From an archaeon (GTDB lineage: Archaea; Iainarchaeota; Iainarchaeia; Iainarchaeales; CSSED10-239): 32,000 bases of DNA. A program made the position numbers and the translations under genes. Shown piece after piece: positions 1 through 16,734 of the stretch (position 1 is its first letter; each line of letters begins with the position of its first letter). The stretch covers positions 170,792-202,791 of the forward strand of contig DAOMZT010000002.1 in the NCBI GenBank assembly GCA_035400625.1, written 5' to 3'. The notes under the pieces are model-generated. The model made no database searches and was not told the origin of the DNA. It saw only the letters and a program-made list of their open reading frames with translations.

Positions 1-1
1 G

Positions 2-3000
2 ATTAAAGTTCACACTTGAGTTTCTATTTTTTATCAGTTCAATAATTAAATCTTCTGTATCTTCTGTTGATACTTTTATTCCAGGTTTTGGCAAATCCAC
101 ATACGAGGTGTTCAAATTTAGATTAAAAAATAAATTTGTTTTAAATGGGGCATTAAGGTCTAATCTTATTGGCTGATTATTATAATTTCCTGCATTAATT
201 ATATTATGATAACCACCTGTAACTGAGGCAATATCACTATCTTGTGTGGTATCTTCAGTTAAAGGAACTGATGGACCTTTTGGATCTTGTGGTGGCGTAG
301 AACCATTTCCATTTGGCAAATCCAATATTGAAATTCTTGTTTTTATTTCTTTATTTAAGTCTGACAAATATAATGGGATGTTATTCTCTGTATATATGTA
401 GTTGTTAATATCCTGATAATCTAAATATTGAGTAGGATTAGGATAAGGATCAGCAGCAATCAGCCATCCATAGACTTGATTTGTTCCTTTTATATAATAT
501 TTCTTTAGATCCTTTGTAAACTTAAAATTTCCATTGTAGGTATATTTTCCAATATTATAAACTATAGTGTTTCTTGAAGAAATTTCTGTTCCATTTTCTA
601 AGAACAATCTATAATTTGATTTTACTTGCTTAGATATTGTAACAGTGTTATTTGAAAGACCATAATTTGCAGGGAACAAGAAACTAAAATAAATATTGTG
701 TCCTAATTTTGTAAGTGGCAAAGATAAATTTTTATTTTCTAGCATTCCATTAGAATTTGTTGTTCCAAACACTATTGTTTGTGGAGAATTAACAACAGCT
801 GATATTTTAACTCCAGATATTGGACTACCAGATATATTTCTAACCCTAAAACTAATAATATTATCTCCTGCATATATATCATTATTTTCTGTTGTATCTC
901 CAGTAATAATTTCTATTATTACATTAGCATCTGTTGGATAATATGCTAAAACAGGAACAGAATACGGATTTAAACCAGAAATGTTTAGTATATCTGTAGT
1001 AATATTAGAATCTGTATTTAAATCATAACTTGTACTATCATTATTTGGCTGGTATAATGTGGCACTAGCCATACCAACATTGTGTATAAGATTGTTATTT
1101 TGATGATTATTTTGGTTGTTATTATGTTGATTAAATCCACTAGGCGTATTATTAATAAAGAAATCTGTTGCTGAAATTACTGAGCTGTGATCTATTTGGG
1201 TTGCTAGGGTTGCATCTATATCATTTATTGTATAATTTATTGCATTAATACCTGTTGCATTAATGTCTGTTTGAGTATTATTAGAATGATTTCTTTTCTT
1301 AAATTTATATGCATTATATATTAGATGATTATATGTATTTACTGAGTTTGCAACAACCGACCCATTTATTGTATTATTTTTCAAATATAATAATTTCTGA
1401 GAATAATAATAGTTCTTACCAATCTCTAATATATATTTGCTACCAAGTGGAGTTAATTTTTGACCAACTGTGTTTGTGGGTAAATTATAATCATAAATAT
1501 CATATAAGAACATATAATCAGAATTATTAAATGTTAATGCGCGACTGTGATAAGGACTATAGAAATACCCGTCAGGAACCATATCACATTCTTGCCAAGA
1601 AGTACTCAAATTAGGGCTCAACTTATATTCATTATCTTTTGTCTCTGTTAGCCCCTTATAATAAATTACATAATCAGAAAGATTTGTTATACCATTTTGG
1701 AATTTCACATCAACAAAGAATTCTATTTGTTCTGCAAGAGTGTCTGAAAAGTCAATTTTTACCCATTTAAAGCCAGAAGTTGATGCTGAACAATTTGTTT
1801 GAGAATGATCAATATCGTTATTTGCTAAGAAATGGGCAGGATCCCATACTGCCGTTTCTCCAGAGAAGTTACAGCCATATTCGTTTTCGCTATTAAATGC
1901 TATTACTTTTTCTAATCTTAAATAATCTGATGGTAAAGCAACTCTTTTCCCTGCCCTGACATAAGCATATGCACGATCTCTGTTCTCTTTTTTATTAGTT
2001 GTTAATTTAAACTTTAATTTAAAGGTCTTAGAATATTCTGTTGCTAGATTGATTATATTTTTATCAATATTTCCACTTTCATCATATATACCTAATAATT
2101 CAATATTAGAAAACGCTTCTGTTCTGGTATTTGAAAGAGCGATGGTGCGATAAACTTTTTGTCCAGGAATAAGTGTAATTAAGCTTGTTTGATATGTGGA
2201 TTTGCCATCTGCAGTAATTATTGCATATATGTTTTGAGAAAATTCATTAAATATATATTCTTTGTTAGAATCTTGAGAGGTTCCAGCCACAACATAGTTT
2301 GTTATTTCGTCTCCATTAGATTTAAAGAAATAAATATTATAATCAATTGTAGGTGTTACTTTAAGATTTAATATTGTTGCCTGATCTTCTAATTCCACAT
2401 CTAGTTCCATAAATTCATTAGCATCTAATCTCTCAGTTTGTGAAATGCCCTGTTCTGGACTTTTAATTGCATAGGCATAATATTTTCTACCAGACCTAAT
2501 AAATGAGAAATTACAATCTCCTGAACTATTTGTTATTTGTGGACCAGCAATTGGTATATCGTCGTCACCATCTCTGAAAATATATACACTTGCTCCAACT
2601 ACATTGTATGCGCTTCTAGAAACATTAACTCCAATTTTACCAGTATTAAGTTCAGATGAATATTCTAATGGCACAGTAATTGTTGCATTATTATCAAAAC
2701 TATTCAAATTTATAATGTCAGGGGCAAAATAACCATAATTTTCTGTATTTGTTACAGAAATTCTATAAGTTACTGAACTAGCAACTGGCAAAGAAAATGT
2801 TGCTTTATTAGTATCTTCTCTTGTGCCTACAGCTTTAACTAAATTTGTATCTGTTCTTTTTGTATATATTGTGATATCCCCCCTTATTTCTCTTTCAGTA
2901 TTGCCATTAGCATCTACTAAAACTACATTTAATGTCTTTCCACCAGTTGTTAATAAAACATTTCCTGTTGTATTATTATTTATTGATACTTGGTATGGTC

Positions 3001-4273
3001 CAAATCTATCTAATGTAGAAACATAACCTTCTTTACTTGCAGAAACTGTATATGCTCCTGGAGTTAGGTTAGTAAACACATAAGTTCCATAAATGGTTGT
3101 TGTTCCTGAAGAAACAAATATGTTTGATTCGTTTATTTGCGTTGTTGGATCATCAGGCCTATATAATTGTAAATACACATCTGGAATTGCTACTTGTGTG
3201 TTTTGATCCTTTACTGTTATTTCTAAGGTTCCATAGTTTTGTGCTATTGGTGTTAGCATAATTACATTACTTTCAGGAACCAATCTGTTTTGAATAGAAT
3301 TGTAAAATTCAGAATAAACGTCAACTCTTAAATCTCCACAACCAGCTGGAACACTAACAGATAATTGTCCTGTGCTTGTGCTTTTTGAACTAGGATCTGG
3401 TGTAGTGCCTGAATTTGCACAGCGTAAATTTACTCTTATTGGTTTTGTTGCTAAAAGTATATCATTTTCTTTAAAAACTAAATTTCTGGTTGTTGGGTTC
3501 ATTAGATGTAATTTTAAATTAGTGTCTATTTCTAATTTCACTAAAACTGAATTATTTCTGCCTTTAAGTTTTAGTTCTTTTGTTTGAGTATTATAAGATT
3601 CTTTTTCTACAATTAATTTAACATTTTTTTTCTTCCCAAAATCTTCAAAGATTGCTTCTCCAAAGACTCCTGTTTGAGATGTTTTGTTTATATCTCCAAT
3701 TGATAATATTGCTGTTGCTCCAGAAACTGGCATATCTAAAATATCAGTCACAGTAACTTCCAATACTGGTGATCCCATAAGACCACTAAAAATTCCTGAA
3801 AAGAATATTAACCAAATTAAAGCAAATATAAATATTATAAATAAAATAAAGCTAGGAAATACTTTGTCTATTTTATCTACTAATTTTCCTATTGGTATAA
3901 CTTTATTTATGCCATCGATCATAGAATAATAAAGATTTTCAAAAAAGAAATATATCTTCTTAAAGAAAGTAATTATTGGTAAAAAGATATTTTTCTTATC
4001 TTTTTTTGGAGCTACAAGTGATGGTTTTTCTTTAGTGTCTTCTTTTAAAGATTTAGAAATTTCTTTAAGAATCTTTTCTTTTTCTTCTGGTGTTGTTATT
4101 ATTTTTTCTTCTTTTTGTTTATTATCATATAATTTATCAACTACTCTTTTGGCTACATCCTTATCATAGCCATCAAAGATAATTAATTTCTCTAATTCCT
4201 CTTTTGAGAAGCGATTTTCTCTGCCTTTTAGCATATTGTAGATTTTCTCTACTTCTTCATCTTTTTCATTCAT
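2..4273 (-). CDS. Family A giant membrane-anchored surface protein, 3'-truncated by the window edge (>=1424 codons); colinear paralog of 8230..14169
   Basis: Absent from the ORF track because it has no stop inside the window. Hand translation starts at ATG 4271-4273, which is preceded in frame by TAG at 4277-4279, and reads MNEKDEEVEKIYNMLKGRENRF... I checked the frame codon by codon at 4202-4273, 1742-1860, 1982-2041 and 2-61 and saw no stop. No other minus-strand ORF is listed for 1..4279. The protein has a K/E-rich N-terminal tail of ~138 aa and one TM helix (VFPSFILFIIFIFALIWLIFFSGIF, ~3779..3859). CarboxypepD_reg-like units follow, e.g. LEITVKDQNTQVAIPDVYLQLYRP...IYGTYVFTNLTPGAYTVSASKEGY (about 3010..3240). 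GCNFSGETAVWDPAHFLANNDIDHSQTNCSASTSGFKWVKIDFSD aligns with GCRYHGDLESFDSNYFITNFESDYSFNNCIAGKYKWLEFDFSD of the 1979-aa protein. Confidence 0.85.
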   Translation of the reverse strand, partial: MNEKDEEVEKIYNMLKGRENRFSKEELEKLIIFDGYDKDVAKRVVDKLYDNKQKEEKIITTPEEKEKILKEISKSLKEDTKEKPSLVAPKKDKKNIFLPIITFFKKIYFFFENLYYSMIDGINKVIPIGKLVDKIDKVFPSFILFIIFIFALIWLIFFSGIFSGLMGSPVLEVTVTDILDMPVSGATAILSIGDINKTSQTGVFGEAIFEDFGKKKNVKLIVEKESYNTQTKELKLKGRNNSVLVKLEIDTNLKLHLMNPTTRNLVFKENDILLATKPIRVNLRCANSGTTPDPSSKSTSTGQLSVSVPAGCGDLRVDVYSEFYNSIQNRLVPESNVIMLTPIAQNYGTLEITVKDQNTQVAIPDVYLQLYRPDDPTTQINESNIFVSSGTTTIYGTYVFTNLTPGAYTVSASKEGYVSTLDRFGPYQVSINNNTTGNVLLTTGGKTLNVVLVDANGNTEREIRGDITIYTKRTDTNLVKAVGTREDTNKATFSLPVASSVTYRISVTNTENYGYFAPDIINLNSFDNNATITVPLEYSSELNTGKIGVNVSRSAYNVVGASVYIFRDGDDDIPIAGPQITNSSGDCNFSFIRSGRKYYAYAIKSPEQGISQTERLDANEFMELDVELEDQATILNLKVTPTIDYNIYFFKSNGDEITNYVVAGTSQDSNKEYIFNEFSQNIYAIITADGKSTYQTSLITLIPGQKVYRTIALSNTRTEAFSNIELLGIYDESGNIDKNIINLATEYSKTFKLKFKLTTNKKENRDRAYAYVRAGKRVALPSDYLRLEKVIAFNSENEYGCNFSGETAVWDPAHFLANNDIDHSQTNCSASTSGFKWVKIDFSDTLAEQIEFFVDVKFQNGITNLSDYVIYYKGLTETKDNEYKLSPNLSTSWQECDMVPDGYFYSPYHSRALTFNNSDYMFLYDIYDYNLPTNTVGQKLTPLGSKYILEIGKNYYYSQKLLYLKNNTINGSVVANSVNTYNHLIYNAYKFKKRNHSNNTQTDINATGINAINYTINDIDATLATQIDHSSVISATDFFINNTPSGFNQHNNNQNNHQNNNLIHNVGMASATLYQPNNDSTSYDLNTDSNITTDILNISGLNPYSVPVLAYYPTDANVIIEIITGDTTENNDIYAGDNIISFRVRNISGSPISGVKISAVVNSPQTIVFGTTNSNGMLENKNLSLPLTKLGHNIYFSFLFPANYGLSNNTVTISKQVKSNYRLFLENGTEISSRNTIVYNIGKYTYNGNFKFTKDLKKYYIKGTNQVYGWLIAADPYPNPTQYLDYQDINNYIYTENNIPLYLSDLNKEIKTRISILDLPNGNGSTPPQDPKGPSVPLTEDTTQDSDIASVTGGYHNIINAGNYNNQPIRLDLNAPFKTNLFFNLNLNTSYVDLPKPGIKVSTEDTEDLIIELIKNRNSSVNFN

Positions 4274-4279
4274 AATCTA

Positions 4280-6523
4280 TCATTTAATATTAAATAATGG
4301 TGTAAAGTATATTTCTTTTATTACTACATCGTTTTGTAATTTAAATTTTAAAAGATATCTTTGTGCTTGGCAAAACAATCTTACATCATCAATACCATAT
4401 CCTTTTTCTTCAGGGATATTAGTTAAATCAAAGTTTTCAGGGTTATAATGTAAAATGTCTTTTGCTATCTTATATTCTTTTATATTTGTTCCTGCAAATT
4501 GTTTTGAATCTGGCATTATATTTTCTCCAGTCTTTAGACTATAAACCACATAATTTTCATCACTTGGATATCCTGGTGGTTTAAACAAGCTTCCATCTGG
4601 ATTAACATAATAAATATTTAAATCAGTAATCACCCCTGCATTATCAGTATAAATTGTATATTCTGTGTCTGTTCTTAATGCGAAGTTGTTAAGTTCTAGG
4701 CTATCACATACAGGGCAATTAATCTCTTCTACATCAACACGCCCAACCTTACTTGATTCGGAATCAAAATCATTTTGTATTATTCCTAAATTTGCAAGGC
4801 GCAATGTTAAATTATCTGTTTTATATGATAAACTGGAATTTCCAGAAGATGCTGCATGACAACCATTAATATTTATTGCAGTTTCTTTTACTGGAACATA
4901 CTTAATTAATTTTAAAGATTTTGGTAAGAAACTACCGGATTTTAAATAATTAATATTTATGTTACCTATTTTTGGATCTATGTTTTGATTATTGCAACTT
5001 TCATCACAATGACAAAAAAGACTATTTATATTTTCTACATTTTGTTCATTTAATTCATTAGTTATGTTAAAGTTAAGAGATAGATTTTCTAATTTATCAA
5101 TATTTATTGAACCAATAGAGCCTGCCTTACCTTGTCCACGATTTTTATTTACATTAACTTTGCCACTCAATGCATAATAATAGAAATCTTTTTCATTTAT
5201 AAAATTAGATATATTATAATCACTTATTGAACCACCAACGCCACTTTCACCATACTTGCCCCCACCATCGCTTTTGTTGCCTCCCATCTCTCCATCTCCT
5301 GCAGATAAATCATATCTTAATATCCCTTGATTCACAATATTGTATTTTGTATTAGGTATATAAATAAATTTTATATGCCCCCCATAACCCCCTTTACCGC
5401 CATTTGCAGAATCAGCACCACATGTATTATTGCCACCATTACCACCTCTTCCACCATTACCTGATTTTATGGTGATATTAAATTCTGCTTGTTGCTGTTC
5501 ATCTTCTTTTAAATTTTCTAAATTATAAACTATAAAATTACTATGGCCTCCATTTCCTCCTGCACCACCTGATTTTGGAGAACCACCACAATTGCCTTTT
5601 TCGCCACTGCCTTTTGCACCATTTGCTCCATTTCCTGATTTTAAAAAAACATTAAATTTACCATAATTTTTGATAAACCCTTCTTGTATTATTAATACTG
5701 ATTGCCCACCATTACCCCCAACACCACCATTTTTATTATATCCTTTAGATCCTGCACTACCTTTTGCTCCATCGGCAGCAAATAAATTAATATCAACAGT
5801 TCCATAATTAATTATATTATATGCAGATAATATAGCCACACCTCCATGAATTCCATGATCTATAGGATCAGAATATGTTGTACTGTGATCATTTGGTTTT
5901 GTAGCAATTAGTGAAATATTTAAATCGGCATTTTTTTCTATAATTAAATTTTGAAAATTAAGTCTTGTTCCATGACCTACTCTATTAGGACTACCCACAT
6001 TTCCATCAGTATCTAATGCCCTTCTTTGTCTTTCTGTTATATTTATTAGTGTGTTGGTTAATATTTTAGTTTCATTAACATCCATACTTAGTATGCCAGG
6101 GATTGGGCTATATCCAACTAGCAACTCTTCATCATTATCCACTATAAAATTCAAAGTAATTGAATTGTTAGGATTACCAGAATCAAATCTTATTTCATCT
6201 ATCCCAGAAATTGTTATTTTTTCGTTATTCTCAGTAATTTTAAAATTCTGATTTTGAGAAATCCACAATATAAATTTTTTATTGTTACAATGCTCATTAT
6301 TAGAAATCCTCACAAAATTAAAATTAGGATTTATTATTTCTTCAGAATTGTTCAATTTTAAAAAATATTCATTTGATTGCGAAGCCAACGTTCCTTCATA
6401 CTCTACATCTTGTAGTACATTCTGCATATTTTGAAAACAATCAACAGCATAAATTGGAACAATCACTATTTGTATAAATATTAAAATCATTAAAATTTTT
6501 AATGTTGTTTTTATTTTTGACAT
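4280..6523 (-). CDS. Family B secreted Gly-rich repeat (predicted beta-solenoid) protein, 747 aa; function unknown
   Basis: Start is ATG 6521-6523 and stop is TGA 4280-4282, immediately followed by TAG at 4277-4279. Signal peptide is MSKIKTTLKILMILIFIQIVIVPIYA/VD. Residues ~187-490 form about six ~50-aa coils with loops such as GGVGGNGGQS, GGAGGNGGHS and GGKGGYGGH. The C-terminal third is colinear with the 690-aa ORF (INYLKSGSFLPKS/INYLSNGSYLPKT; CPVC/CPHC; LFCQAQRYLL/LFCYGQEYIL). Only 6 nt separate its stop from the next start. Confidence 0.9.
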   Translation of the reverse strand: MSKIKTTLKILMILIFIQIVIVPIYAVDCFQNMQNVLQDVEYEGTLASQSNEYFLKLNNSEEIINPNFNFVRISNNEHCNNKKFILWISQNQNFKITENNEKITISGIDEIRFDSGNPNNSITLNFIVDNDEELLVGYSPIPGILSMDVNETKILTNTLINITERQRRALDTDGNVGSPNRVGHGTRLNFQNLIIEKNADLNISLIATKPNDHSTTYSDPIDHGIHGGVAILSAYNIINYGTVDINLFAADGAKGSAGSKGYNKNGGVGGNGGQSVLIIQEGFIKNYGKFNVFLKSGNGANGAKGSGEKGNCGGSPKSGGAGGNGGHSNFIVYNLENLKEDEQQQAEFNITIKSGNGGRGGNGGNNTCGADSANGGKGGYGGHIKFIYIPNTKYNIVNQGILRYDLSAGDGEMGGNKSDGGGKYGESGVGGSISDYNISNFINEKDFYYYALSGKVNVNKNRGQGKAGSIGSINIDKLENLSLNFNITNELNEQNVENINSLFCHCDESCNNQNIDPKIGNININYLKSGSFLPKSLKLIKYVPVKETAININGCHAASSGNSSLSYKTDNLTLRLANLGIIQNDFDSESSKVGRVDVEEINCPVCDSLELNNFALRTDTEYTIYTDNAGVITDLNIYYVNPDGSLFKPPGYPSDENYVVYSLKTGENIMPDSKQFAGTNIKEYKIAKDILHYNPENFDLTNIPEEKGYGIDDVRLFCQAQRYLLKFKLQNDVVIKEIYFTPLFNIK
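5054..5965 (-). repeat. Protein-level tandem coils (~50 aa each) with Gly-rich loops in the 747-aa family B protein
   Basis: Residues ~187-490 read as successive units: RLNFQNLIIEKNADLNISL.. / AILSAYNIINYGTVDINLFAADGAKGSAGSKGYNKNGGVGGNGGQS / VLIIQEGFIKNYGKFNVFLKSGNGANGAKGSGEKGNCGGSPKSGGAGGNGGHS / NFIVYN..EFNITIKSGNGGRGGNGGNNTCGADSANGGKGGYGGH / IKFIYIPNTKYNIVNQGILRYDLSAGDGEMGGNKSDGGGKYGESGVGGS / ISDYNISNFINEKDFYYYALSGKVNVNKNRGQGKAGSIGS / INIDKLENLSLNFNITNE. The Gly codons create local GC-rich islands on the plus strand (runs of cc). Confidence 0.8.
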
Positions 6524-6537
6524 TTTTTATCTTTCTA

Positions 6538-7941
6538 TTATTTATGTATTTTAAAAGGGTATTCTAAAGTAATATCAGGATACCCCATATCTTGATTACT
6601 ATTTAACTTAAATCTAAATAAATACGAATCTAAAAGGTTAGTATCTATTGATTGATCATATAAAAATAATTTAAAGAAAATATTTTCGGTTTGGAATATA
6701 TTAGAAACCATGTGATTTAAATTTTTTGTGTTATATAACCCTGCATTACCAGCAGTATCTAATGAAACATCTAGTGGATTATAAGTAATTGCAGAATTAA
6801 TTGTTCCAAAAATTATTGGTGTTGATGTAATATTTGAATCACTGGTAAACAGATATTCTGAAATTTGATTAGATACGCTAATTGGCGAACAACTCTTGTT
6901 TACTTTATTTATATGTGTTACGCCAGTATTTTGTGTATTTAAATCAATTAAATTACCCTCTGGCCTTACATAACTTAAATTACATATTTTATAATTTATA
7001 TTACTTGGCAGAGATATTGGGCCACATGTTGAAAGATATAAATTCCCATAATTATTTGCATTAATTATTTGAGTTGGCAAATTTCCGGTAATAGATTTAA
7101 AATGGAAATTACATGTATTATTCAGATAAATTGTATTATCTACTTTTGTTGAACAATTTAAATTTATTGTGCCATTATTATCTACTTGCTCAAATGAGAT
7201 AATATCTGCAAAATAATCTGTATTTAAATTATATGTTTGTTGATTAGGTGTTTGCTCCTCATTTTCTTCATCTTCTTCTAAATAGTACTTTAATGAATAA
7301 TAATAGTTGCATTCTTGTTCATAACCTACATAATTTTTATTATTTATAATATTTAATGTACCTGTATTTTTTATTTCAATTCTATTAAATAAAATATTGC
7401 TTTCAGGCACATAAGAATATAAATATCCATTAATATAATATTCGCCTAAACACGCATTTTTACTAATATTTACATCTAATTTGTTTCCTAAAATTAAATT
7501 ATTTACATTTCTAAAATCAATTTGAGTATCAGTTAAATTGCCTCTATCTATTTTTATTGTTGTAAATTCATTAATTTTTATAAGATTAAAATCAGAAAAC
7601 ATTATATTTATTTTATTAATATCAGGGTTTAAAATAAAACAATCAGAGAGTGTAGTATCAAAAGTTACACAAGAAACATTAAAATTTGCATTTTGATTTA
7701 TCACTAAATTTATTCCAGATCTGCTCGGTCTTATTTCACTCCCAACAATATTATAGTCTCCTCCATTTAAAATACAATTACCTGTTTGTGAATTATAATT
7801 ACAGGTTGCAATACCGGTTTGAGAATTATACAAACCCATTATGTCTACATTATCTGAAAAAACGAAACCAGAAATAGATATACTTATAAGTATTATAAAT
7901 AGTAAGATTATTCCTTTTTTTGAGTGATTTGTATTCTCCAT
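6538..7941 (-). CDS. Family C secreted Asn-rich protein, 467 aa; function unknown
   Basis: Start is ATG 7939-7941 with GGTGA 9 nt upstream. Stop is TAA 6538-6540, 14 nt before the next start. N-terminal hydrophobic signal is KKGIILLFIILISISISGFVFS/DN. The last ~115 aa align with the mature 16327..16734 product (STPIIFGTI/TYPIIFGNI; YLFRFKL..LEYPFKI/DIFRFYF..LTFPFKL). Confidence 0.88.
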   Translation of the reverse strand: MENTNHSKKGIILLFIILISISISGFVFSDNVDIMGLYNSQTGIATCNYNSQTGNCILNGGDYNIVGSEIRPSRSGINLVINQNANFNVSCVTFDTTLSDCFILNPDINKINIMFSDFNLIKINEFTTIKIDRGNLTDTQIDFRNVNNLILGNKLDVNISKNACLGEYYINGYLYSYVPESNILFNRIEIKNTGTLNIINNKNYVGYEQECNYYYSLKYYLEEDEENEEQTPNQQTYNLNTDYFADIISFEQVDNNGTINLNCSTKVDNTIYLNNTCNFHFKSITGNLPTQIINANNYGNLYLSTCGPISLPSNINYKICNLSYVRPEGNLIDLNTQNTGVTHINKVNKSCSPISVSNQISEYLFTSDSNITSTPIIFGTINSAITYNPLDVSLDTAGNAGLYNTKNLNHMVSNIFQTENIFFKLFLYDQSIDTNLLDSYLFRFKLNSNQDMGYPDITLEYPFKIHK

Positions 7942-7950
7942 TTTAATTTG

Positions 7951-7955
7951 TCACC
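7951..7955 (-). promoter_or_regulatory. Shine-Dalgarno-like GGTGA, 9 nt upstream of the 467-aa gene ATG
   Basis: Plus-strand tcacc at 7951-7955; the ATG is at 7939-7941. Confidence 0.5.
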
Positions 7956-7965
7956 ATTTATACAA

Positions 7966-8037
7966 TCACCAAAATAACAATAAAACAATAAACTCAATTA
8001 TAAGTATGATTATTATTAATTTTAAAGTTAGTTTCAT
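7966..8037 (-). CDS. Possible 23-codon hydrophobic micropeptide (MKLTLKLIIIILIIEFIVLLLFW)
   Basis: Hand translation runs from ATG 8035-8037 to TGA 7966-7968. GGGGA (plus-strand tcccc, 8044-8048) lies 6 nt upstream of the ATG. The stop lies 24 nt upstream of the 467-aa gene start, and that gene's GGTGA site falls in the gap. The ORF is too short to tell from chance in AT-rich DNA. Confidence 0.25.
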   Translation of the reverse strand: MKLTLKLIIIILIIEFIVLLLFW

Positions 8038-8229
8038 GTAATTTCCCCTATATACTATATAATATATTAATTAAATATATTTATATAACTTTTCATAGAT
8101 AAAAAATGAGATTTTTAAGTATAATCATTCGATTGTGCTTAATCTACATGTTGAAACTTAAAAAACACAATTTCTTCAACAGATAGATTAAAATGGTCAT
8201 TGTCCCTTCACTATATTTTATATTTTTAC

Positions 8230-11200
8230 TTAATTATTGTAATTGGTTTCTATTTGGTTTCTATTACTTCGTGTAATTTTTATCTTATCTGAAACCCATT
8301 TGATCTTTGAACTTGATAGAGTATTTGAGATACATGCGTTCCCATCTTTTACTTGGTCTAACATTTGATTTATTGAGTAAATGTCTGGAACTCTTGAGAC
8401 TAGAGCAAGTTCTGTTGTGCCTTCTAAACTACTCAAACCATATAGTCTTGACTCAACATTATTATCTAAATCTGATAATGTTAATTTAATATCTAAATAA
8501 TCTACATTTACAGGCAAATAAATCATTGATTCTAATAGATATTTCTCATCTAAATTGTTTCCAAATTTGTCTTTTGTAAGTTCGTGTCTTAAATAGTTTG
8601 CATGTGACCCAAAGACAGCTATATCATCCATTGCATTATTATAATTTGAATCAGAGAATAATTTCCATTTGAATAAATTGTTTGTGCTTATAGGGAATTG
8701 ATTATTAACCATTAATTTATAGTTAAAACTCTTATCTTTTATGCCATTTACTCTTGCAAACACATTTATTGGTCTTGAAGGAGTAAAGTTAAAAACTATG
8801 TTTTTCTTTTCTGAACCAGATGTATTATCTACTGCTAAATCTAATAAATTACCATTTGTATTTAAAACATCAGTTACTTGCCAATTTACAAGATAGTTGC
8901 TTGGATAATTTGCAGTAATATTTGTTACTCCTGAACAATCAGAGGTACAATTTTCTGCAACCCCATATAATTTTATTGATGTTGCAGATGGTTCTGTTAC
9001 TAACAAATCAGAATATTCATAATTTCCTACAATTGTTGAACCATAACCTACTCTATGTGCCTTGTCATTTACTACTCCAAAGTCCCCATCTATTGGAATA
9101 TAATAAAACAGATTGTTTTTATTTAATGGAATATTTTGAACCAATTCTAGGTTAATATTAAGATCCTTTGTAAAAGCAGGATCAAAATCATTAACAACAA
9201 TTTTGTATTTTCCGACTTCTTTTGTTGGATTGTTGTTTGGCGTTCTTTTAGTTATTGTGATTTCTTTATCGTGGTCAGAATCCAAATATTTTTCTGAAAA
9301 TGCAGAAGAAATACTATGTGTAATAAATTGATCATAATGTCCCCTAAAGTCCTCTAACAAGTCTTCTGATTCTATGCCATCATACATCAAATAGATATGA
9401 TAATCTTTGCTTGTGTCATAATCAGAAGAGCTAATTAATGTAAATATTGAGTATAGTGCTTGAACAGAATCACAATGTGTTTTATCAGCATCATATTCCT
9501 CTTTATCATCTATACAAAGAGTTTTCCAATTTAATGTTTGGTCTCCCCAATTATATAATACTTTTGGAAGAGCAGATTCTCCAACACTACAAGCTTCTTG
9601 TTCTTCAGTATCGCAAATACCTAAAATAAAATAATCGCCCCCTTGTGCTTGTCCACCTACTCCCATACAAAAATGACCAGTAACCCCTATATTGTTTAAT
9701 ACAGTTACTGGAGTTTCAGGTATATATGTAACAATTATTGTTATTGGCTTTATCTCTGTTACTTGCACATTATTTACAGTTAGATAGAAATTCATTTGTT
9801 TATTATAGGTTTCCTCTAAATCTGGAATAGTCATTAGATTGCTGTAATTCCCGTCTATTTTTATTGGCACCTCTATGTGGTTTTGAGGTGTGATAGGCAT
9901 TGGTATATCAATTGAAGCAGATTCATAGGCAAGAGGATTGGAATTTAAAAGCTCTATTCCTGTTAATTCTAAACTATAGCTTTTAGTGTTGTTTTTTATA
10001 TTATACACCATTGTTGAACTACAATTGTCTTCTCCCTTACAAGCAATGGTTAAGTGCGTTCCTGGCAAAGACAATTGGTAACTTTTGTTTTTTGGATATA
10101 ATGTTATTTTTATTGGAACCTCATATATAAAATTCTCTGTTTGATTACCAATCTTTATATTTATGTTTGCATCTTTTTCTATAATTTCTGTAAAATTAAT
10201 ATTCTTAAGAACAAATGTAAAATTAAAATTACCAACCAATCTATTTTGAGAAGAATTGTTTGTGTGTGCCTGAGTAAAGTTAATATAATTAGAGATGTCT
10301 TCTCCAACAATCTGTGTATCTAAGATATCATAGTTTATTGGGTCGGTAAATAAAAGATTAAGATCATAACTTATTGAAATATTATCAATAACTTCTTTTA
10401 TTAGCTCTATTCCTGCCCCTTCTTCACCCTCATAAAAACCATTAACATTAGTTGTTGTAAACTTAGAAAAATCCTGTATATCTAATATTTTAATTCTTGC
10501 TGAAGAGTTTGTGTCTTTGTAAAGTGTAATGTCTGGCATTTCTCCTGTATTTTTCACAGTAAATATGTTATTATAACTAAAATTAATATCTTGAATATCT
10601 GTGTCAGGATCAATATGTAACCCTGCAGAAATCACATTGCTTTGGTTTAGGTCTTTTGGTAAATTATTAACAGCCATTAAATTCTGATTAATTATTTCTT
10701 CTAAAAACACCTCGTTGTCAGAAACAGAAACCGCTTCTAGTTTTACTACTCTATTTGTGTTATTTTTAATAATATAGTCTTTTACCAAATCTGTTGCTTT
10801 TTTCTTACCACCAATGTTTGTTAAAAGAATATCATATCTTAATCTGTTGTTGTTTGTTATTAATTTATTGTCAAGATCATAAATATTTATTCCTGTGCCA
10901 ATAACTTGAGAAAAGGTTAGTTCGTTATTTGGAAGATTAGAGCCTGGTATTGTAAAAATAAAGGTAATGGTTTTTCCTGAGTCTTCTAAAGGTATAAATA
11001 TCTCTGTATTTAATGTGTTGTTTGTTATTTCTCCTAACTCTGTAGCAATTGTTTGACCAGAGACTATATATTTTACAGCTATGTTATTTTCATAGTTGCC
11101 TGTTTTGTTCTTTAAACTAATATTAAGATCATTAGAACCAACATAAATTTTTCCATCTGTTGCATTGGAAGTAACAACTGGAACATATGTGCTCTCAGAA

Positions 11201-14169
11201 TATGATAAAATATTTGTTGAGGCTGTTGCTAAAGATGAATTGTCTTTCTTAAATAATTGTGTTCTTAATGTTGGCTGATCAGTTAATGAAAAGAAGTCTA
11301 TTGGTTTGCCAATTAAATTGTTAACAAAGTAATAACCAATACTTGTGGTCTTTGAAGATATGTTAACAGAAGTATTATTATCTATTGTTTGTATGATTGG
11401 ATTTGTTGATGTTTTATCTTTAAAATAACTGTTTGTAAAAACATAGTTGTTATTTGTGTTTTGAGTGTCTGTAATTATGTCTCCTGTTCTGTTGGTATCA
11501 GAGAACTGTATGAAGCTTAAACTATAATTATAGTCCTTTCCAATATAAAGTATATAATCTGAACCAAATTTAGTTAGTTCTGAATTTCGGTCAAATAACT
11601 TAATTACATAAGAATAATTGGAATTGTCAAAAGGTATTGCTTCTACTTGGGTTGGTGCATAGAAATATCCTTCTGGCCTTATTGACCATTCATTCCAGTT
11701 TGAAAGGTTTGGAGAAAAGGAAAATGTTTCTAAATCTGAATTTAATGATCTGTAATAGATTTTGTAATTGTCAATGGTTGTAATTTCGTTTTTGAATTTT
11801 ACATTTACAGAATATTCTATAATGTTTGCAGTAACATCACTAAAATCAAACTCTAGCCATTTGTATTTTCCTGCTATGCAGTTGTTAAAAGAATAATCAG
11901 ATTCAAAGTTTGTAATAAAATAGTTGCTATCAAAAGATTCTAGATCTCCATGATATCTACAGCCTGTTCTTATCTCTGTGTCTTTTGGAACAAACAAGTC
12001 TGTGTTTGTTAAATAAATAAAGTCTGCATTTTCTGTTAGATATCTTCCTGCTTTTATAAATGCTTTCTTTATTACGTTTGTTCTGTCTGAGCCAAATACA
12101 GTCTTAAATTTTAACTTATATTCTTTTGTTAAATCGTTATTTCCTGAAAAGGTTAAATTGTCTATCTTTATTGTGCCTGTGGAATCATAAAGACCTAAAA
12201 AGGAGGTGGCTGTTTGAATTTCTGATATAGTAGGGAAGGTTATTTCTTTGTAAGCTACCTGTCCAGGAAATAGTGAGATAAGGTCTGTTTGATATAATAG
12301 GTCGTCTTTTTCAATAGTCAAATATATTCTTGAACAATCATCACCACAATTAAACACAAAGGTTTTGTTTGTATCTTCAGTAACATTTGTAGCAATTACA
12401 TTTTCTGTAGGTATTTGCTCTCCAGAGACTTCAAAAAAAGAAATGTTATAATCTTGATTTGGTGTTATTTTAAGATTAAGGGTTTTAGATTGATTACCTA
12501 AAGACACATTTAATTCTAAAACATCATTACTATCAAGCTCTTGTGCTGGCAGAGAATCACCATCTGCACTTTCGTTTCTTAATATAGCATAAGCGTAATA
12601 TTCTCTTTTGCTTTTTACTAAATCAAAATTTGCATCTCCGCTTGAATTTGTAGTTTTTGGATTTTCTGGATTGTATAGCACGTATTCATCATCTAACTCA
12701 TAAAATAAATAAACTAATGCATTTGCTCTCTTATAGCCGTTTTTTGTAACATTAACATTTATGCTCCCACTATTTAATGAGGACAAATATTCTAAAGGTA
12801 TTTCTATGGTTGTGTTAGTGTCTGCAGAAAGATTATTGACATCTACTGGTGTTGGTGGCAAATAGCCATTATCTTCTGTGTTTGATACAATTATTCTATA
12901 ATTATTATTTGCAACTAGAGCAAATGTTGTTTGGTTCACATCTCTTCTAGTAGTAATTAAACTTGAGACATTCTGGTCTCTTTTATAAACTGAGATATTG
13001 CCAGTAACTGGAACACTAGTGTTTTGATCTTTTAATTTAACTATTAGATTTGTAAGTTTTCCTATGGTACAGCCATTACCATTAGGATTAGGGGTAACTA
13101 AACCTGTTAATAATGGACTATTACAATCAATTTTTCCATCTTTACAAAAAGGAGCATATATTGGGTTTGAACAGTTAATGTTTGCTAAATCTGATGCTGT
13201 AATTAAAGTAATGTTTGCAGTTGTTATGTTATTATTAACAATATTATAAGGCCCTAGCTTTGGAAGGCTTATATATCCTGTTTTATCTATTGATAAAAGA
13301 TAATTTGATTGAGGTGCATTAAACTTATATTTACCATAAACATCTGTTGTTCCTGTGCTATATGTGACATCTGATTCGTTTGTTGGTGTTTGTAAATCAT
13401 CTACATTATGTAGTCTTAGATTAGCATATGGTACTGCTTGTCCGATTATGTCTTTTACAGTAACTTCTAATGTGCCTGTATTTGTATTAACTCTTGTTAG
13501 TTCAACTATGTTATCTTCGCTAACATTTCTGTCAGTTATTAGTTCATAATTTGAAGATACCACACTTACTAACAAAAAACCACAATAGCCAGGCTGTAAG
13601 ACATTTGTTCTTCCGTTTGTTACTGTTGTTGTTCTAGGTTCTGGTATTTTTTCAGAATTAGAACATTTAAAAGTAACATTAAGATTATCAGTAACAACCA
13701 CATCATAGCTTTTAAATATTATTTCTCTGCGTCTCTCAGAAGAGGGCCCCTTAAATTCTCCAGAGGTTGTGTCCATTTCAAGAGTTATTGTTTCTTCTTT
13801 TAGTTTTTTATCTAGTTTTATTTGTTTTGTTGTAGGAAAATAATTTTCTTTTGTTGCTTTTATTTCTAGATCTTTAAATTTTAGATCTTTAAACTCAGTA
13901 TAGCCAAAGGCATCTGTGCTTTGTGTTATTTCGTTATTTATTGTTACGCTTACTCCACCTAATGAAAAGTTCTGTTCATCTACCACATATACTTCTAGTG
14001 TTTTTTTGCTTCCACTAAATAATAATATTAAGATAATTATCAAGACAATTACCGCAATAATAATAAATATTATTTTTGTAAATTTCTTTTTTGGTTTTTC
14101 TGTGGTCTGAGGATTGTTCTGTTCTACTGTTTGTTTAATTTCGTTTATTAGTTTTTCTTGTTCGCTCAT
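8230..14169 (-). CDS. Family A giant membrane-anchored surface protein, 1979 aa (beta-sandwich repeat array plus C-terminal head module)
   Basis: Start is ATG 14167-14169 and stop is TAA 8230-8232. A polar 30-aa N-tail is followed by a TM helix (KIIFIIIAVIVLIIILILLFSG, ~14011..14079). CarboxypepD_reg/PEGA-type units follow (LEVYVVDEQNFSLGGVSVTINN..FGYTEFKDL..IKATKENY; LEVTVKDIIGQAVPYANLRLHN..TDVYGKYKFNAPQSNYLLSIDKTGY). Later units resemble PapD/CARDB-like sandwiches (STMVYNIKNNTKSYSLELTG). The head module runs from ALPKVLYNW (9573 downward). The sequence is Asn/Thr-rich with many N-x-S/T sequons. Confidence 0.95.
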   Translation of the reverse strand: MSEQEKLINEIKQTVEQNNPQTTEKPKKKFTKIIFIIIAVIVLIIILILLFSGSKKTLEVYVVDEQNFSLGGVSVTINNEITQSTDAFGYTEFKDLKFKDLEIKATKENYFPTTKQIKLDKKLKEETITLEMDTTSGEFKGPSSERRREIIFKSYDVVVTDNLNVTFKCSNSEKIPEPRTTTVTNGRTNVLQPGYCGFLLVSVVSSNYELITDRNVSEDNIVELTRVNTNTGTLEVTVKDIIGQAVPYANLRLHNVDDLQTPTNESDVTYSTGTTDVYGKYKFNAPQSNYLLSIDKTGYISLPKLGPYNIVNNNITTANITLITASDLANINCSNPIYAPFCKDGKIDCNSPLLTGLVTPNPNGNGCTIGKLTNLIVKLKDQNTSVPVTGNISVYKRDQNVSSLITTRRDVNQTTFALVANNNYRIIVSNTEDNGYLPPTPVDVNNLSADTNTTIEIPLEYLSSLNSGSINVNVTKNGYKRANALVYLFYELDDEYVLYNPENPKTTNSSGDANFDLVKSKREYYAYAILRNESADGDSLPAQELDSNDVLELNVSLGNQSKTLNLKITPNQDYNISFFEVSGEQIPTENVIATNVTEDTNKTFVFNCGDDCSRIYLTIEKDDLLYQTDLISLFPGQVAYKEITFPTISEIQTATSFLGLYDSTGTIKIDNLTFSGNNDLTKEYKLKFKTVFGSDRTNVIKKAFIKAGRYLTENADFIYLTNTDLFVPKDTEIRTGCRYHGDLESFDSNYFITNFESDYSFNNCIAGKYKWLEFDFSDVTANIIEYSVNVKFKNEITTIDNYKIYYRSLNSDLETFSFSPNLSNWNEWSIRPEGYFYAPTQVEAIPFDNSNYSYVIKLFDRNSELTKFGSDYILYIGKDYNYSLSFIQFSDTNRTGDIITDTQNTNNNYVFTNSYFKDKTSTNPIIQTIDNNTSVNISSKTTSIGYYFVNNLIGKPIDFFSLTDQPTLRTQLFKKDNSSLATASTNILSYSESTYVPVVTSNATDGKIYVGSNDLNISLKNKTGNYENNIAVKYIVSGQTIATELGEITNNTLNTEIFIPLEDSGKTITFIFTIPGSNLPNNELTFSQVIGTGINIYDLDNKLITNNNRLRYDILLTNIGGKKKATDLVKDYIIKNNTNRVVKLEAVSVSDNEVFLEEIINQNLMAVNNLPKDLNQSNVISAGLHIDPDTDIQDINFSYNNIFTVKNTGEMPDITLYKDTNSSARIKILDIQDFSKFTTTNVNGFYEGEEGAGIELIKEVIDNISISYDLNLLFTDPINYDILDTQIVGEDISNYINFTQAHTNNSSQNRLVGNFNFTFVLKNINFTEIIEKDANINIKIGNQTENFIYEVPIKITLYPKNKSYQLSLPGTHLTIACKGEDNCSSTMVYNIKNNTKSYSLELTGIELLNSNPLAYESASIDIPMPITPQNHIEVPIKIDGNYSNLMTIPDLEETYNKQMNFYLTVNNVQVTEIKPITIIVTYIPETPVTVLNNIGVTGHFCMGVGGQAQGGDYFILGICDTEEQEACSVGESALPKVLYNWGDQTLNWKTLCIDDKEEYDADKTHCDSVQALYSIFTLISSSDYDTSKDYHIYLMYDGIESEDLLEDFRGHYDQFITHSISSAFSEKYLDSDHDKEITITKRTPNNNPTKEVGKYKIVVNDFDPAFTKDLNINLELVQNIPLNKNNLFYYIPIDGDFGVVNDKAHRVGYGSTIVGNYEYSDLLVTEPSATSIKLYGVAENCTSDCSGVTNITANYPSNYLVNWQVTDVLNTNGNLLDLAVDNTSGSEKKNIVFNFTPSRPINVFARVNGIKDKSFNYKLMVNNQFPISTNNLFKWKLFSDSNYNNAMDDIAVFGSHANYLRHELTKDKFGNNLDEKYLLESMIYLPVNVDYLDIKLTLSDLDNNVESRLYGLSSLEGTTELALVSRVPDIYSINQMLDQVKDGNACISNTLSSSKIKWVSDKIKITRSNRNQIETNYNN

Positions 14170-14183
14170 AATTAATCTTTTTT

Positions 14184-16256
14184 CTAGTCACTAAATAATT
14201 CTCTTAATGGTACAAATGGGAAATTAAAATTTTTTATAGTACCACCATCAGAAGTAATCTTTCCATCTAAAATATATTCTTGGCCATAACAGAACAGATA
14301 ATCTTCTTGGTTTAGTTCATCAATATCATCTTCTGGAGTATGGCTATAATAAATTAAATCTTCTGGTTTTATTTTATATTCATAATTGTTTGTCTTTTGG
14401 TTAAAAACACCAGAAATTGGATTTTTATTTGTATAAACAGGTAATTGTTTATTATCTGTTCTTTTTGTATAATATTTTGATTGATTTAAAGGATTGGAAT
14501 AATAAACTTTTAAATCTCCAACATTAATTGTTCCGTCAATATTAGAAAAAAGGCTATAATCTCTTGTATATCTGTTTTGAGAATCATCAAGAGGCATAAC
14601 TTCACAATGTGGGCAATAATTAGAGGTTAAATCAAATTCTGAATTTAACATTGAAATAACATCTGAGTTTGTTGCTTCTATCCTTATATATTCTTTAATA
14701 TCAAAATCAACTTTTGTTGGATTAATATAACATCCCTTTATGCTAATATTGTTATTAAAATATTCATCATCAACTATTGGTGTGCCTGCAGAAATAGTTT
14801 TTGGAAGATAAGAGCCATTACTTAAATAGTTTATTTTTATATCTGATAATTTTAGATTTAAATAAGGTAATGGCAAGATATTGCCACCATTATCTTCTCC
14901 ATCATAACCATTATTACTTGTTGCAATAACAGCCAAATCATATTGATGATTAGTAAAATTAAAATTAGATGTGATTTCAAAACCATTACTTGATTTATTC
15001 TCTAAAAAATCAATAGTAATATCTCCTATTTTTCCTGGTATTCCAAAAGATGCAGAATTCTCTGGTGCACAAGTTCCATCTGGACTAATATCAACATCTC
15101 CTAATGCACCATTTTTTATATTTAATTTAAATTCGGAGGAATTTAATTTATTTAAAAAAGTATTAATTTTAATATCACTTATATTCCCGCCATGACCTCC
15201 ATCTCCATTATGTCCATCTTTGCAATGATCATCATAATTTTCTGCACGTTGCACACCGCCCGAACCGCCATCTCCTGCGGTTGCATTAAATATTATACTC
15301 TTATAATTAGTTATTTTGTCTATATTTGAAATAAATATATTCCCTGCGTTGCCTCCATTACCCCCATTATATGTTTCATCTTGTGGGCCTTCATCTTTTT
15401 CACTATAGCCTCCTTTTCCGCCTTTCCCTGTTTCTAAACTGATTTTTAAATTATTATAATTTTCTATTTGTTTAATACTAAAGTTTAAATCTCCCGAATT
15501 ATCTCCATCACCCGCACTAAAACCACCATCATGAATAGTTCCTGTATCCCCCCCTGAAAAAGATTGCCCGTCTCCACCATTCCCTGTTTTTAAATCAATA
15601 TCAATAAAACCATAATTCTGAATATTATTAATTTTTAAATTTACATATCCACTTCGAGTTCCATGTTTTGATTCTAAGAATGCATAATAATTATTTCCAA
15701 AAGCATCTACTCCATAACCAAAACTTCGATTTCCTATTTTGCCATCATTGCTTTTTAAATTTAAATTTAGATTTGCATTAGGATAAACAAATATTGATTC
15801 TATATTTACATCGTGAGATTTATCAGTTGCTTGCAATGGGGAATATGTTTTAATATCAAGTTTTTTTTCAGAATTTACAATAATATTTGGTAACGTTATA
15901 GATTTTGCATCTTCATATATCGTTATTTTTGAATTATTGTTTGCAATAAGATTTATGTTTGTATAATCAAAAAAATTAAAATTAAAATAATCTGATTTCA
16001 ATAAGAAATTATATCCATTTGTATAAAAATTAATTTTATAATCATTACAACTTGTTAAACTAAATGGAGGTGCTGTGGTTTTTACTAATACAGAATCATT
16101 AATATTACAATTACATTCTAATTTATCATGATTACAGTCACAACTTACTTTGCCAGTCAATGGAGAATCATTATAAATTTCAACATTACAATTAGCAAAC
16201 ACTCCATTTGTTGCCAATATTATTATTAAAAATATAATTGCATATTTTATTTTCAT
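14184..16256 (-). CDS. Family B secreted Gly-rich repeat (predicted beta-solenoid) protein, 690 aa; function unknown
   Basis: Start is ATG 16254-16256 and stop is TAG 14184-14186, 14 nt before the 1979-aa start. Signal peptide is MKIKYAIIFLIIILATNGVFA/NC. Coils occupy residues ~198-436 (YVNLKINNIQNYGFIDIDLKTGNGGDG..; LNFSIKQIENYNNLKISLETGKGGKGG..; IFISNIDKITNYKSIIFNATAGDGGSGG..GDGGHGGN). It is a paralog of 4280..6523. Confidence 0.9.
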   Translation of the reverse strand: MKIKYAIIFLIIILATNGVFANCNVEIYNDSPLTGKVSCDCNHDKLECNCNINDSVLVKTTAPPFSLTSCNDYKINFYTNGYNFLLKSDYFNFNFFDYTNINLIANNNSKITIYEDAKSITLPNIIVNSEKKLDIKTYSPLQATDKSHDVNIESIFVYPNANLNLNLKSNDGKIGNRSFGYGVDAFGNNYYAFLESKHGTRSGYVNLKINNIQNYGFIDIDLKTGNGGDGQSFSGGDTGTIHDGGFSAGDGDNSGDLNFSIKQIENYNNLKISLETGKGGKGGYSEKDEGPQDETYNGGNGGNAGNIFISNIDKITNYKSIIFNATAGDGGSGGVQRAENYDDHCKDGHNGDGGHGGNISDIKINTFLNKLNSSEFKLNIKNGALGDVDISPDGTCAPENSASFGIPGKIGDITIDFLENKSSNGFEITSNFNFTNHQYDLAVIATSNNGYDGEDNGGNILPLPYLNLKLSDIKINYLSNGSYLPKTISAGTPIVDDEYFNNNISIKGCYINPTKVDFDIKEYIRIEATNSDVISMLNSEFDLTSNYCPHCEVMPLDDSQNRYTRDYSLFSNIDGTINVGDLKVYYSNPLNQSKYYTKRTDNKQLPVYTNKNPISGVFNQKTNNYEYKIKPEDLIYYSHTPEDDIDELNQEDYLFCYGQEYILDGKITSDGGTIKNFNFPFVPLRELFSD
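14949..15665 (-). repeat. Protein-level tandem coils (~50 aa each) with Gly-rich loops in the 690-aa family B protein
   Basis: Residues ~198-436 show the same strand / N.G turn / strand / Gly-loop periodicity as 5054..5965. The units are listed in the CDS evidence for 14184..16256. Confidence 0.8.
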
Positions 16257-16326
16257 GTTTTTCTTGCTTTAAATTTATGTTGTTTTTTACATTTTTTATT
16301 TTGTGTTATTTTTCATACTTTATATT

Positions 16327-16734
16327 TTATGATAACTTAAATGGAAAAGTTAATGATAAGTTCTGATCTGGATTTATCTTTAGATTTGTTTCAATAAAGT
16401 AAAATCTAAAGATGTCTTTTGCAGTTAGTGATTGAAATTTGTTTTGATTTAGATTACCAATATAAAAAAATACATTTGTTTCTTTTTTAACACACGAAGA
16501 TGTAAGCTCTATCTCTAAGTCTTCTTGAGATGGCTTAAATACACTTGGAGAGAAGTTGTCCCCACAAACAATTTTTATTCCATCTGGTTCTTTAATATTT
16601 CCAAATATTATTGGATAGGTCTTTATGTTCTCTTTAGGGAAAGCTATCCAATCTGTATTTGTATCTTCTGCAAAAACATTATTTAGAAATATAACTAAAG
16701 AAAGAACAATTATTAATTTTTGAATATTTTTCAT
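16327..16734 (-). CDS. Family C small secreted protein (~135 aa from the first ATG); function unknown
   Basis: The ORF-track start at 16764 is TTG (plus-strand caa, 16762-16764) and would overlap the upstream gene by 20 nt. The first ATG (16732-16734) gives MKNIQKLIIVLSLVIFLNNVFA/EDT, a canonical signal peptide. It leaves a 10-nt gap after the upstream stop at 16745-16747. Stop is TAA 16327-16329. The product is homologous to the C-terminal domain of the 467-aa protein. Confidence 0.8.
   Translation of the reverse strand: MKNIQKLIIVLSLVIFLNNVFAEDTNTDWIAFPKENIKTYPIIFGNIKEPDGIKIVCGDNFSPSVFKPSQEDLEIELTSSCVKKETNVFFYIGNLNQNKFQSLTAKDIFRFYFIETNLKINPDQNLSLTFPFKLS

Follow-up and report, generated by a model that had tools for sequence, protein, structure and literature searches.

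The SPEARE proteins of Nanohaloarchaeota, very large proteins of the cell exterior encoded in small genomes, are believed to act in contact between cells. Consecutive genes for giant surface proteins, Giant1-5, likewise take up 5-8% of the small genome of Apilactobacillus kunkeei and are also thought to act in cell-cell interaction (PMC12863079). Within the Iainarchaeota, Candidatus Forterrea multitransposorum carries a 42-kbp region with five large (>1,800 amino acids, aa) membrane-anchored proteins (Probst and Banfield, 2018; PMC5905446). Here, we describe a locus of this kind in a 32,000-nucleotide (nt) stretch of DNA (the window) from a member of the same lineage, the Iainarchaeota (Diapherotrites), a DPANN group with genomes of ~0.6-0.84 Mb. 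The core of the locus is a triad of genes, C, B and A in transcription order, that encodes a secreted protein, a secreted Gly-rich solenoid protein and a giant anchored protein, and that is present twice in the window. The triad was confirmed as a real, conserved three-gene unit in a giant surface-protein locus. The C-B-A cassette belongs to a longer conserved locus with the order Y2-Y1-X1-X2-X3-A0-[C-B-A]n-D1-D2, followed by HU and HisRS. Together, the 12 locus genes amount to ~15,200 aa and ~46 kb, or ~7-8% of the ~0.6-Mb genome, and the locus belongs with the giant surface-protein loci of small-genome symbionts. However, no sequence relationship to Giant1-5 or SPEARE proteins was detected, the domain content of those proteins is different, and they lack the interleaved triad of small secreted and solenoid proteins.

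The Forterrea locus is the ortholog of the window locus. On the Forterrea sequence CP045477.1 (L019 in our numbering of related loci and contigs; positions 259,776-285,529), A0 (35% identity), a 120-aa C, an 805-aa B (27%), a 2147-aa A (29%), D1 (35%), D2 (44%), HU and HisRS follow one another in the order of the window, and the gene order is the same in L019, L011 and L028. Both loci encode several giants of >1,800 aa, which in the window organism are A0 (2493 aa), A1 (1979 aa), A2 (2178 aa) and Y2 (2448 aa); an N-terminal membrane anchor was found in A0, A1 and A2, whose N-termini were covered. In contrast to the two cassettes of the window, Forterrea has one, of a third type. The published account (PMC5905446) gives the giant genes one sentence and is silent on B, C, the triad, the cassette types, strain replacement and the X1/A0, X2/Y2 and X3/Y1 pairs described below. 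A literature search turned up no account of B, C, the triad, the cassette types or strain-level replacement. The original prediction, made from the letters of the window, recognized no described system of this composition; this holds for the triad, but not for the giant genes, which had been mentioned once for the orthologous locus.

Two better-known kinds of surface protein share parts of this design. Gram-positive pilins and MSCRAMM adhesins, like A0, A1 and A2, have a long stalk of prealbumin-like domains (SpaA/CnaB, SdrD-B) and a distal head, and a weak CnaB match to PDB 6fwy was obtained among the A proteins. Unlike those sortase-anchored proteins, the A proteins are archaeal, are anchored by an N-terminal transmembrane (TM) helix, and are without an LPxTG/sortase signal or a cell wall. 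A regular-expression search found no C-terminal LPxTG, the sole match being internal (A0 residue 942), and a sortase-pilin identity was rejected for want of this motif. A Pmp/autotransporter identity was also rejected, as B1 and B2 gave no PF02415 or beta-barrel translocator match in Pfam at E<=1; an outer membrane, moreover, is absent from archaea. SlaB, the stalk of the surface layer (S-layer) of Sulfolobales, is anchored at its C-terminus. The SlaA/SlaB pair resembles the present locus in that an anchored stalk protein is combined with a secreted outer protein encoded next to it (PMC6911244), but there is no homology, and the present locus counts three partners in several paralogous sets, with a number of cassettes that varies.

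Two cassettes and their inheritance

All long open reading frames (ORFs) of the window, which has a G+C content of ~29%, are on the minus strand. In transcription order, the first cassette consists of C1 (16327..16734; 135 aa from its ATG, or 145 aa as a mechanical TTG ORF), B1 (14184..16256; 690 aa, a Sec-secreted Gly-rich solenoid protein) and A1 (8230..14169; 1979 aa, a type-1 giant anchored protein). After an AT-rich spacer (7942..8229) follow C2 (6538..7941; 467 aa, Sec-secreted), B2 (4280..6523; 747 aa, Sec-secreted) and A2 (2..4273), a type-2 giant anchored protein of which the N-terminal 1424 of 2178 aa lie within the window; the full-length A2 was taken from contig L007. The intergenic distances are 10 nt between A0 and C1, 70 nt between C1 and B1, 14 nt between B1 and A1, 288 nt between A1 and C2, 14 nt between C2 and B2, and 6 nt between B2 and A2. 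These recomputed coordinates agree exactly with the gene sizes and spacers first read from the window.

The original prediction also held that each member of the second cassette has its counterpart in the first. For the larger proteins this was borne out. A1 and A2 are clear paralogs by BLASTP (32% identity over 1185 aa, E=1e-138, with the window part of A2; 30% over 2122 aa, E=0, with the full-length protein), and so are B1 and B2 (28.6% over 378 aa, E=9e-16). For C1 and C2 the claim failed in the pairwise comparison (BLASTP E=0.57, 24 aa, not significant), but was recovered in part by family profiles, which were built from the proteins encoded at the C position of related loci. Every C-position protein ends in an aromatic-x-F-K/R-L/I motif and has P-x-[IV]-F-G-x-I ~95 residues from the C-terminus. 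In hhalign, the profile of the short C proteins matched the C-terminal domain of the long ones (probability 87%, E=4e-6). Reciprocal hidden Markov model (HMM) searches of 453 six-frame ORFs gave the other C type as the top non-self matches (E 1e-5 to 1.5e-3), and unrelated ORFs scored ~0.05 at best; the C1 HMM did not recover the window's own C2 among these ORFs. Because the family profiles and the reciprocal HMMs match, we take C1 to correspond to the last ~105 residues of C2, to which the kinship of the two proteins is limited. The 2493-aa protein upstream of C1 had also been listed as an A protein; it is indeed a paralog, but our comparisons indicate a distinct one (A0) and not a third copy of the A1/A2 type.

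The order small ORF, B, A is kept in every related locus with enough flanking sequence, that is, in nine distinct lineages. Two cassettes in the same order occur in three of them (the window, L013/L025 and L015/L024) and one cassette in the other six. The single cassette is of type 1 only (C1/B1/A1-like) in L014, of type 2 only (C2/B2/A2-like) in L012, where A is 41% identical to A2 and B is 41% identical to B2, and of the third type in Forterrea (L011/L019/L028), L027, L016 and L026. Neighbor-joining trees of A and of B are congruent, with the same three clades in each. These comparisons indicate that C-B-A is a co-inherited module of three ancient types, two of which the window organism keeps in tandem. 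Since the A and B trees share the same three clades and A1 and A2 are only 30% identical, the cassette duplication is judged to be ancient, not recent, and to have been followed by differential loss. The prediction had linked the three proteins through whole-cassette inheritance and shared work. What stands of this is inheritance as one unit, for the order is kept, the types travel together and the trees are congruent; the coupling of the three genes was upheld because an absence of synteny was sought and synteny was found instead.

An A-family alignment scan of species-representative genomes returned only archaeal metagenome-assembled genomes (MAGs), among them Ca. Iainarchaeum and Ca. Forterrea, the latter as a complete genome, and every relative that carries an organism name is an Iainarchaeota or 'archaeon' MAG. 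A bacterial (CPR) origin, which the HU gene downstream had at first suggested, was rejected on this ground. Relative to a HisRS baseline identity of 74% in L014 and 65% in Forterrea, A is 50 and 29% identical and B 46 and 27% identical, respectively. Contigs with 99.99-100% identity to the window were found in several independent digester or sludge datasets (two from JGI, three from ENA, and SRR29782965) and in the NCBI assembly GCA_029563035.1, and run DRR835037 contains sequence with 99.7-99.8% identity. Because near-identical contigs recur in independent datasets, the same strain appears to be widespread in anaerobic digesters and sludge, and its presence at 100% identity in several such metagenomes, JGI 3300025772, JGI 3300009688 and ERZ795061 among them, means that experimental material is obtainable.

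Fast and mosaic evolution of B and C

Comparisons of strains indicate that A changes far more slowly than B and C, both of which undergo mosaic replacement between close strains. In every comparison to the window on shared contigs, B has diverged further than the adjacent A: identities for A and B are 98 and 73% in L023, 83 and 56% in L025, 79 and 59% for P0146/P0004, 78 and 58% for P0147/P0005, 68 and 52% for P0148/P0008, 55 and 40% in L015, and 50 and 46% in L014. The close strain L023 gives the sharpest picture, with A1 97.9% identical to that of the window, B1 73% identical and 100 residues longer, and C2 43% identical. B2 is 190 residues shorter, with 58% identity to the window protein and 96% in its last 100 aa. 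A0 of this strain is 95-100% identical outside one replaced block of ~235 residues (~1465-1700; window 19127-19834). Within this block, which has sharp borders and includes a hydrophobic hairpin, identity falls to 25-38%, and the replacement hairpin is shorter and unrelated in sequence. We interpret the L023 pattern as the result of recombination that replaced alleles. Conservation in B and C is highest toward the C-terminus, both between strains and across families.

Architecture of the encoded proteins

Signal-peptide-like segments are present at the N-termini of B, C, X1, X2 and X3. The AlphaFold2 (AF2) model of B1 (predicted local distance difference test, pLDDT, 79.8; predicted TM-score, pTM, 0.73) consists of an N-terminal beta domain, a five-coil solenoid, a short helical insert and C-terminal beta domains, in agreement with the earlier label of B as a Gly-rich solenoid. 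The five coils of ~52 aa (residues 205-431; window 14964-15644) each contain two beta-strands and two Gly-rich arcs (TGNGGxGG ... GGxGGxxG). In B2, the Gly-rich beta-solenoid lies at ~5189-5851 and is accompanied by C-terminal beta domains with a CPxC motif, which is invariant in the B family (B1 residues 548-551; ~14604-14615). GC skew reaches -0.40 at 5001-6000 (B2) and -0.31 at 15001-16000 (B1) because the GGN Gly codons of the two solenoid arrays are on the coding minus strand. When a B profile was searched against 1.84 billion representative proteins, 41 matches at E<=1e-30 were obtained, most of them full-length B proteins; weaker matches cover the solenoid part alone and occur in unrelated bacterial surface proteins with Flg_new, LRR_5 or MACPF. 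The B1 model had no Foldseek match with E<0.05 in the PDB or BFVD (best 0.12 and 0.07, respectively), sequence and profile searches of the PDB gave nothing useful for the triad proteins, and no sequence or fold match from these searches names B, C or the A head. One Cys near the N-terminus is invariant in the B family (B1 residue 23; ~16188-16190), stands 0-7 residues after the A/G/S of the signal peptide and is lipobox-like (IFAC) in some homologs. Because the count of invariant Cys in B is odd (five), Cys23 could be lipidated or engaged in an intermolecular disulfide.

With their paired GGxGGxxG arcs, the B coils recall Gly-rich domains of the polyglycine-II (PGII) type, such as the N-terminal domain of Obg and the phage adhesin gp38 (PMC12032242; PMC12892980). 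The latter protein is an exposed, hypervariable determinant of specificity (PMC12032242; PMC12892980), which is what we propose for B. The match of B to the Gly-rich domain of Obg is weak (PF01018 E=3.5e-4, 20.7 bits vs. a cutoff of 27; PDB 1lnz E=0.015 with the B profile) and may be purely compositional. Neither Obg nor gp38 structures were among the Foldseek matches of the B1 model (pLDDT 80; PDB and BFVD), and each coil is modeled with two beta-strands, a solenoid as opposed to the PGII sandwich of the polyglycine-II domains.

C can be described as a predicted Sec-secreted protein with a conserved C-terminal domain of ~105 aa and an N-terminal extension of 0 to ~450 aa, the long form of which begins like B. 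C1 is a signal peptide and a C domain only, while in C2 the conserved C domain (~360-467; window 6541-6864) comes last, after a B-like N-terminal domain (~7-200) and a variable middle. The long-C family aligns with the N-terminal domain of the B family with an hhalign probability of 96.7% (E=3.9e-10), to which score the signal peptides contribute in part. Similar aromatic C-termini end C1 (...LTFPFKLS; 16327-16350), C2 (...LEYPFKIHK; 6538-6565), X2 (...NPEYTFKK; 26256-26285), B1 (...FNFPFVPLRELFSD; 14184-14230) and B2 (...IYFTPLFNIK). The shared aromatic motif may act in sorting or form a C-terminal strand for docking.

In the A proteins, Lys-rich cytoplasmic segments lead into one TM helix near the N-terminus. 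They are predicted to be type-II (N-in) membrane-anchored glycoproteins of ~2000 aa, in which a stalk of prealbumin-like domains bears a distal head that contains Cys and is shared with X1 and A0. In A1, a short cytoplasmic N-terminus is followed by the TM helix (residues 33-51; 14017-14073), then by the stalk and, at the C-terminus, by a head (~8233-9672) that is related to both X1 and the C-terminus of A0. A2 has ~140 cytoplasmic aa, a TM helix at residues 143-161 (window 3791-3847) and then prealbumin-like stalk domains, and A1 and A2 contain 53 NxS/T sequons each. Such prealbumin-like domains were the sole families matched in Pfam and NCBIfam, namely PF13620 (CarboxypepD_reg) in the membrane-proximal part (E=1e-18 in A0, 4e-11 in A2 and 5e-7 in A1) and PF17802 (SpaA; E=6e-10 in A0 and 6e-5 in A2). 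No C-terminal hydrophobic anchor and no PGF-CTERM/PEF motif was found in the A, B, C and X proteins. A0, A2 and Y1, in contrast to A1, have in common a cytoplasmic motif next to the membrane (..DKIDK..P..).

Upstream of the cassettes, A0 (16745..24226; 2493 aa) is a giant paralog with orthologs in every genome (35-59% identity). Its N-terminal TM helix (24062-24118) leads into a first ectodomain, its first ~700 residues resemble A2 (E=3e-14), and its C-terminal ~720 residues are related to X1 (27% identity over 796 aa, E=6e-49). The hydrophobic hairpin in the middle of A0 is Gly/Ala-rich (residues 1511-1568; window 19523-19696) and is also found in the orthologs of L011 and L012. X1 (28680..31622; 980 aa, secreted; ATG start on record) has 17 identified orthologs, and a reduced version of its module forms the C-terminal heads of A1 and A2; its AF2 model is poor (pLDDT 56), with only generic immunoglobulin-like matches in Foldseek. 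X2 (26256..28583; 775 aa, secreted) matches the C-terminal part of Y2 (31% over 604 aa, E=4e-68), and X3 (24322..26238; 638 aa, secreted, Cys-rich) has a C-terminal tail in common with Y1. Only the 3′ end of Y1 falls within the window (31652..32000). This 1669-aa anchored giant resembles the N-terminal half of A0 in its N-terminal 1400 aa, and an N-terminal TM helix was found in Y1 as in A0, A1 and A2. Y2 (2448 aa) and Y1 (1669 aa) lie upstream, on a contig of 598,880 bp with 100% identity to the window, and contig L020, on which they occupy positions 1-9971, is 100% identical to the window across the overlap. Because X1/A0, X2/Y2 and X3/Y1 pair up by similarity, the locus can be read as a set of anchored giants with free copies of their distal modules, and these free and fused pairs suggest homotypic pairing of free and anchored modules.

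D1 and D2 (L007:18800-19542) follow directly after the last or single A, downstream of the window. They are small polytopic membrane proteins with no match to a Pfam family, and D2 is conserved better than any giant (76% vs. L012, 44% vs. Forterrea). The order D1-D2-HU-HisRS was found downstream in the window genome, L011, L012, L014, L016, L019 and L027. Scans of the window for tRNAs and Rfam families gave no matches. The 288-nt spacer (7942-8229) contains T-runs, a TATA-like sequence, a hydrophobic mini-ORF of 23 codons (MKLTLKLIIIILIIEFIVLLLFW) and, 9 nt before the ATG of C2, a GGTGA motif; it is likely to hold the start of a separate transcription unit for the second cassette. In L013/L025 and L023, the position of the spacer is occupied by an ORF for a 178-aa membrane-anchored, Cys-containing protein, and L023 has an extra 136-aa ORF between A0 and C1. 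As candidates for C proteins, the 136-aa and 178-aa ORFs of L023/L025 were rejected, since they are not C-like.

A putative surface structure and its alternatives

Taken together, the comparisons describe the triad as a conserved, co-inherited and predicted exported module whose two anchorless members change fastest. We tentatively favor a cell-contact or surface structure in which A is the anchored stalk and exchangeable B and C subunits are exposed. In such a structure, A, B and C would assemble outside the cell into a surface fiber that A anchors and projects. B and C would dock via their better-conserved C-terminal parts, and their variable N-terminal and solenoid parts would lie outermost, where they would determine specificity or antigenicity. 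The role of the whole would be contact with other cells, such as a host, or with surfaces, and two cassettes would provide two alternative tips, the second under its own promoter in the 288-nt spacer. A position at the exposed tip is suggested because B and C are swapped between close strains, as expected of such a tip.

Several points weigh against this reading. Mutual binding of A, B and C is something that we infer from sequence, and no known binding or enzymatic domain was found in B, C or the A head with Pfam, NCBIfam and PDB sequence and profile searches, or with Foldseek for B. The conserved 3′ end of B in L023 could merely mark a recombination breakpoint beside the conserved A. Hypervariability between strains is also typical of S-layer cassettes, so that it cannot separate an adhesin from a coat. 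Furthermore, a free-living life has been proposed for some Iainarchaeota (cited in PMC5905446), in which case there may be no host. A more specific version, in which the triad and A0 are a host-recognition or contact apparatus, B and C are swapped receptor-binding tips comparable to the phage tail-fiber adhesins that are swapped by recombination, and the hypervariable A0 hairpin inserts in the membrane of the partner, seems to us rather unlikely.

The locus might instead form the cell envelope itself, as a new multi-component S-layer or coat in which the A proteins are pillars and B, C and the X proteins an outer canopy, in the manner of SlaB/SlaA of Sulfolobales. A single-copy, phylum-wide locus that adjoins housekeeping genes and claims ~7-8% of a ~0.6-Mb genome would suit this role, as would the abundant NxS/T sequons of A1 and A2 and a survey of predicted S-layer proteins that names four DPANN phyla with MSTP-like proteins, the Iainarchaeota not included. 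Recombining hypervariable cassettes, too, occur in bacterial S-layer loci such as slpA of C. difficile. Nevertheless, we consider an S-layer unlikely. No similarity to any known S-layer domain, whether MSTP/DUF1608-like, Ig-type haloarchaeal or SlaA/SlaB, was found in Pfam or NCBIfam at E<=1, in PDB sequence and profile searches, or by fold (B and X1), and the varying number and type of cassettes among genomes would be odd for a lattice of fixed geometry. Archaeal S-layer proteins are typically anchored at the C-terminus or by lipid, whereas the anchors here are N-terminal and PGF-CTERM is absent. There are also at least 12 genes, against the one or two proteins that are usual for archaeal S-layers (PMC5744192).

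It is also conceivable, though we doubt it, that A, B and C share regulation but work independently at the surface, as adhesins or substrate-binding proteins that form no complex and owe their order to operon inheritance. Each has its own export signal, no interaction domain was recognized, and the Gly-rich solenoid occurs alone in unrelated bacterial surface proteins. Independence fits less well with an order that survives divergence to 27-30% identity, with cassettes that are gained and lost whole, and with gaps of 6-14 nt, which suggest coupled translation. In addition, B and C have no membrane anchor, and without a partner they would not be held on the cell. Giant exported proteins, small adjacent genes and mosaic blocks also resemble, in outline, contact-dependent inhibition (CDI) and Rhs loci, in which giants deliver variable effectors and small genes give immunity. 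We regard a polymorphic-toxin or contact-dependent competition system of this sort as very improbable, because the C-termini of A0, A1 and A2 are among the parts conserved between strains (96-100% in A0 and A1) and because the variable genes, C and B, encode proteins with signal peptides that would be secreted, whereas immunity proteins are cytoplasmic. Pfam and NCBIfam searches gave no match to a toxin, nuclease, protease or Rhs/YD domain.

Whichever role it plays, the locus has a modular grammar of anchored giants, free distal modules and a repeated triad with strain-swapped secreted members, and B is a confidently modeled Gly-rich solenoid without a structural relative in the PDB or BFVD. 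It thereby offers defined candidates for the prediction of complex structures, for metaproteomics and for cryo-electron tomography. DPANN archaea depend on contact with other cells, and the proteins that make this contact are unknown even in cultivated Nanobdellota systems; the proteins of DPANN attachment organelles are likewise unknown in cultivated systems (PMC11420986). If the triad and A0 were to prove a host-contact apparatus, they would provide the first molecular parts list for DPANN cell-cell attachment.

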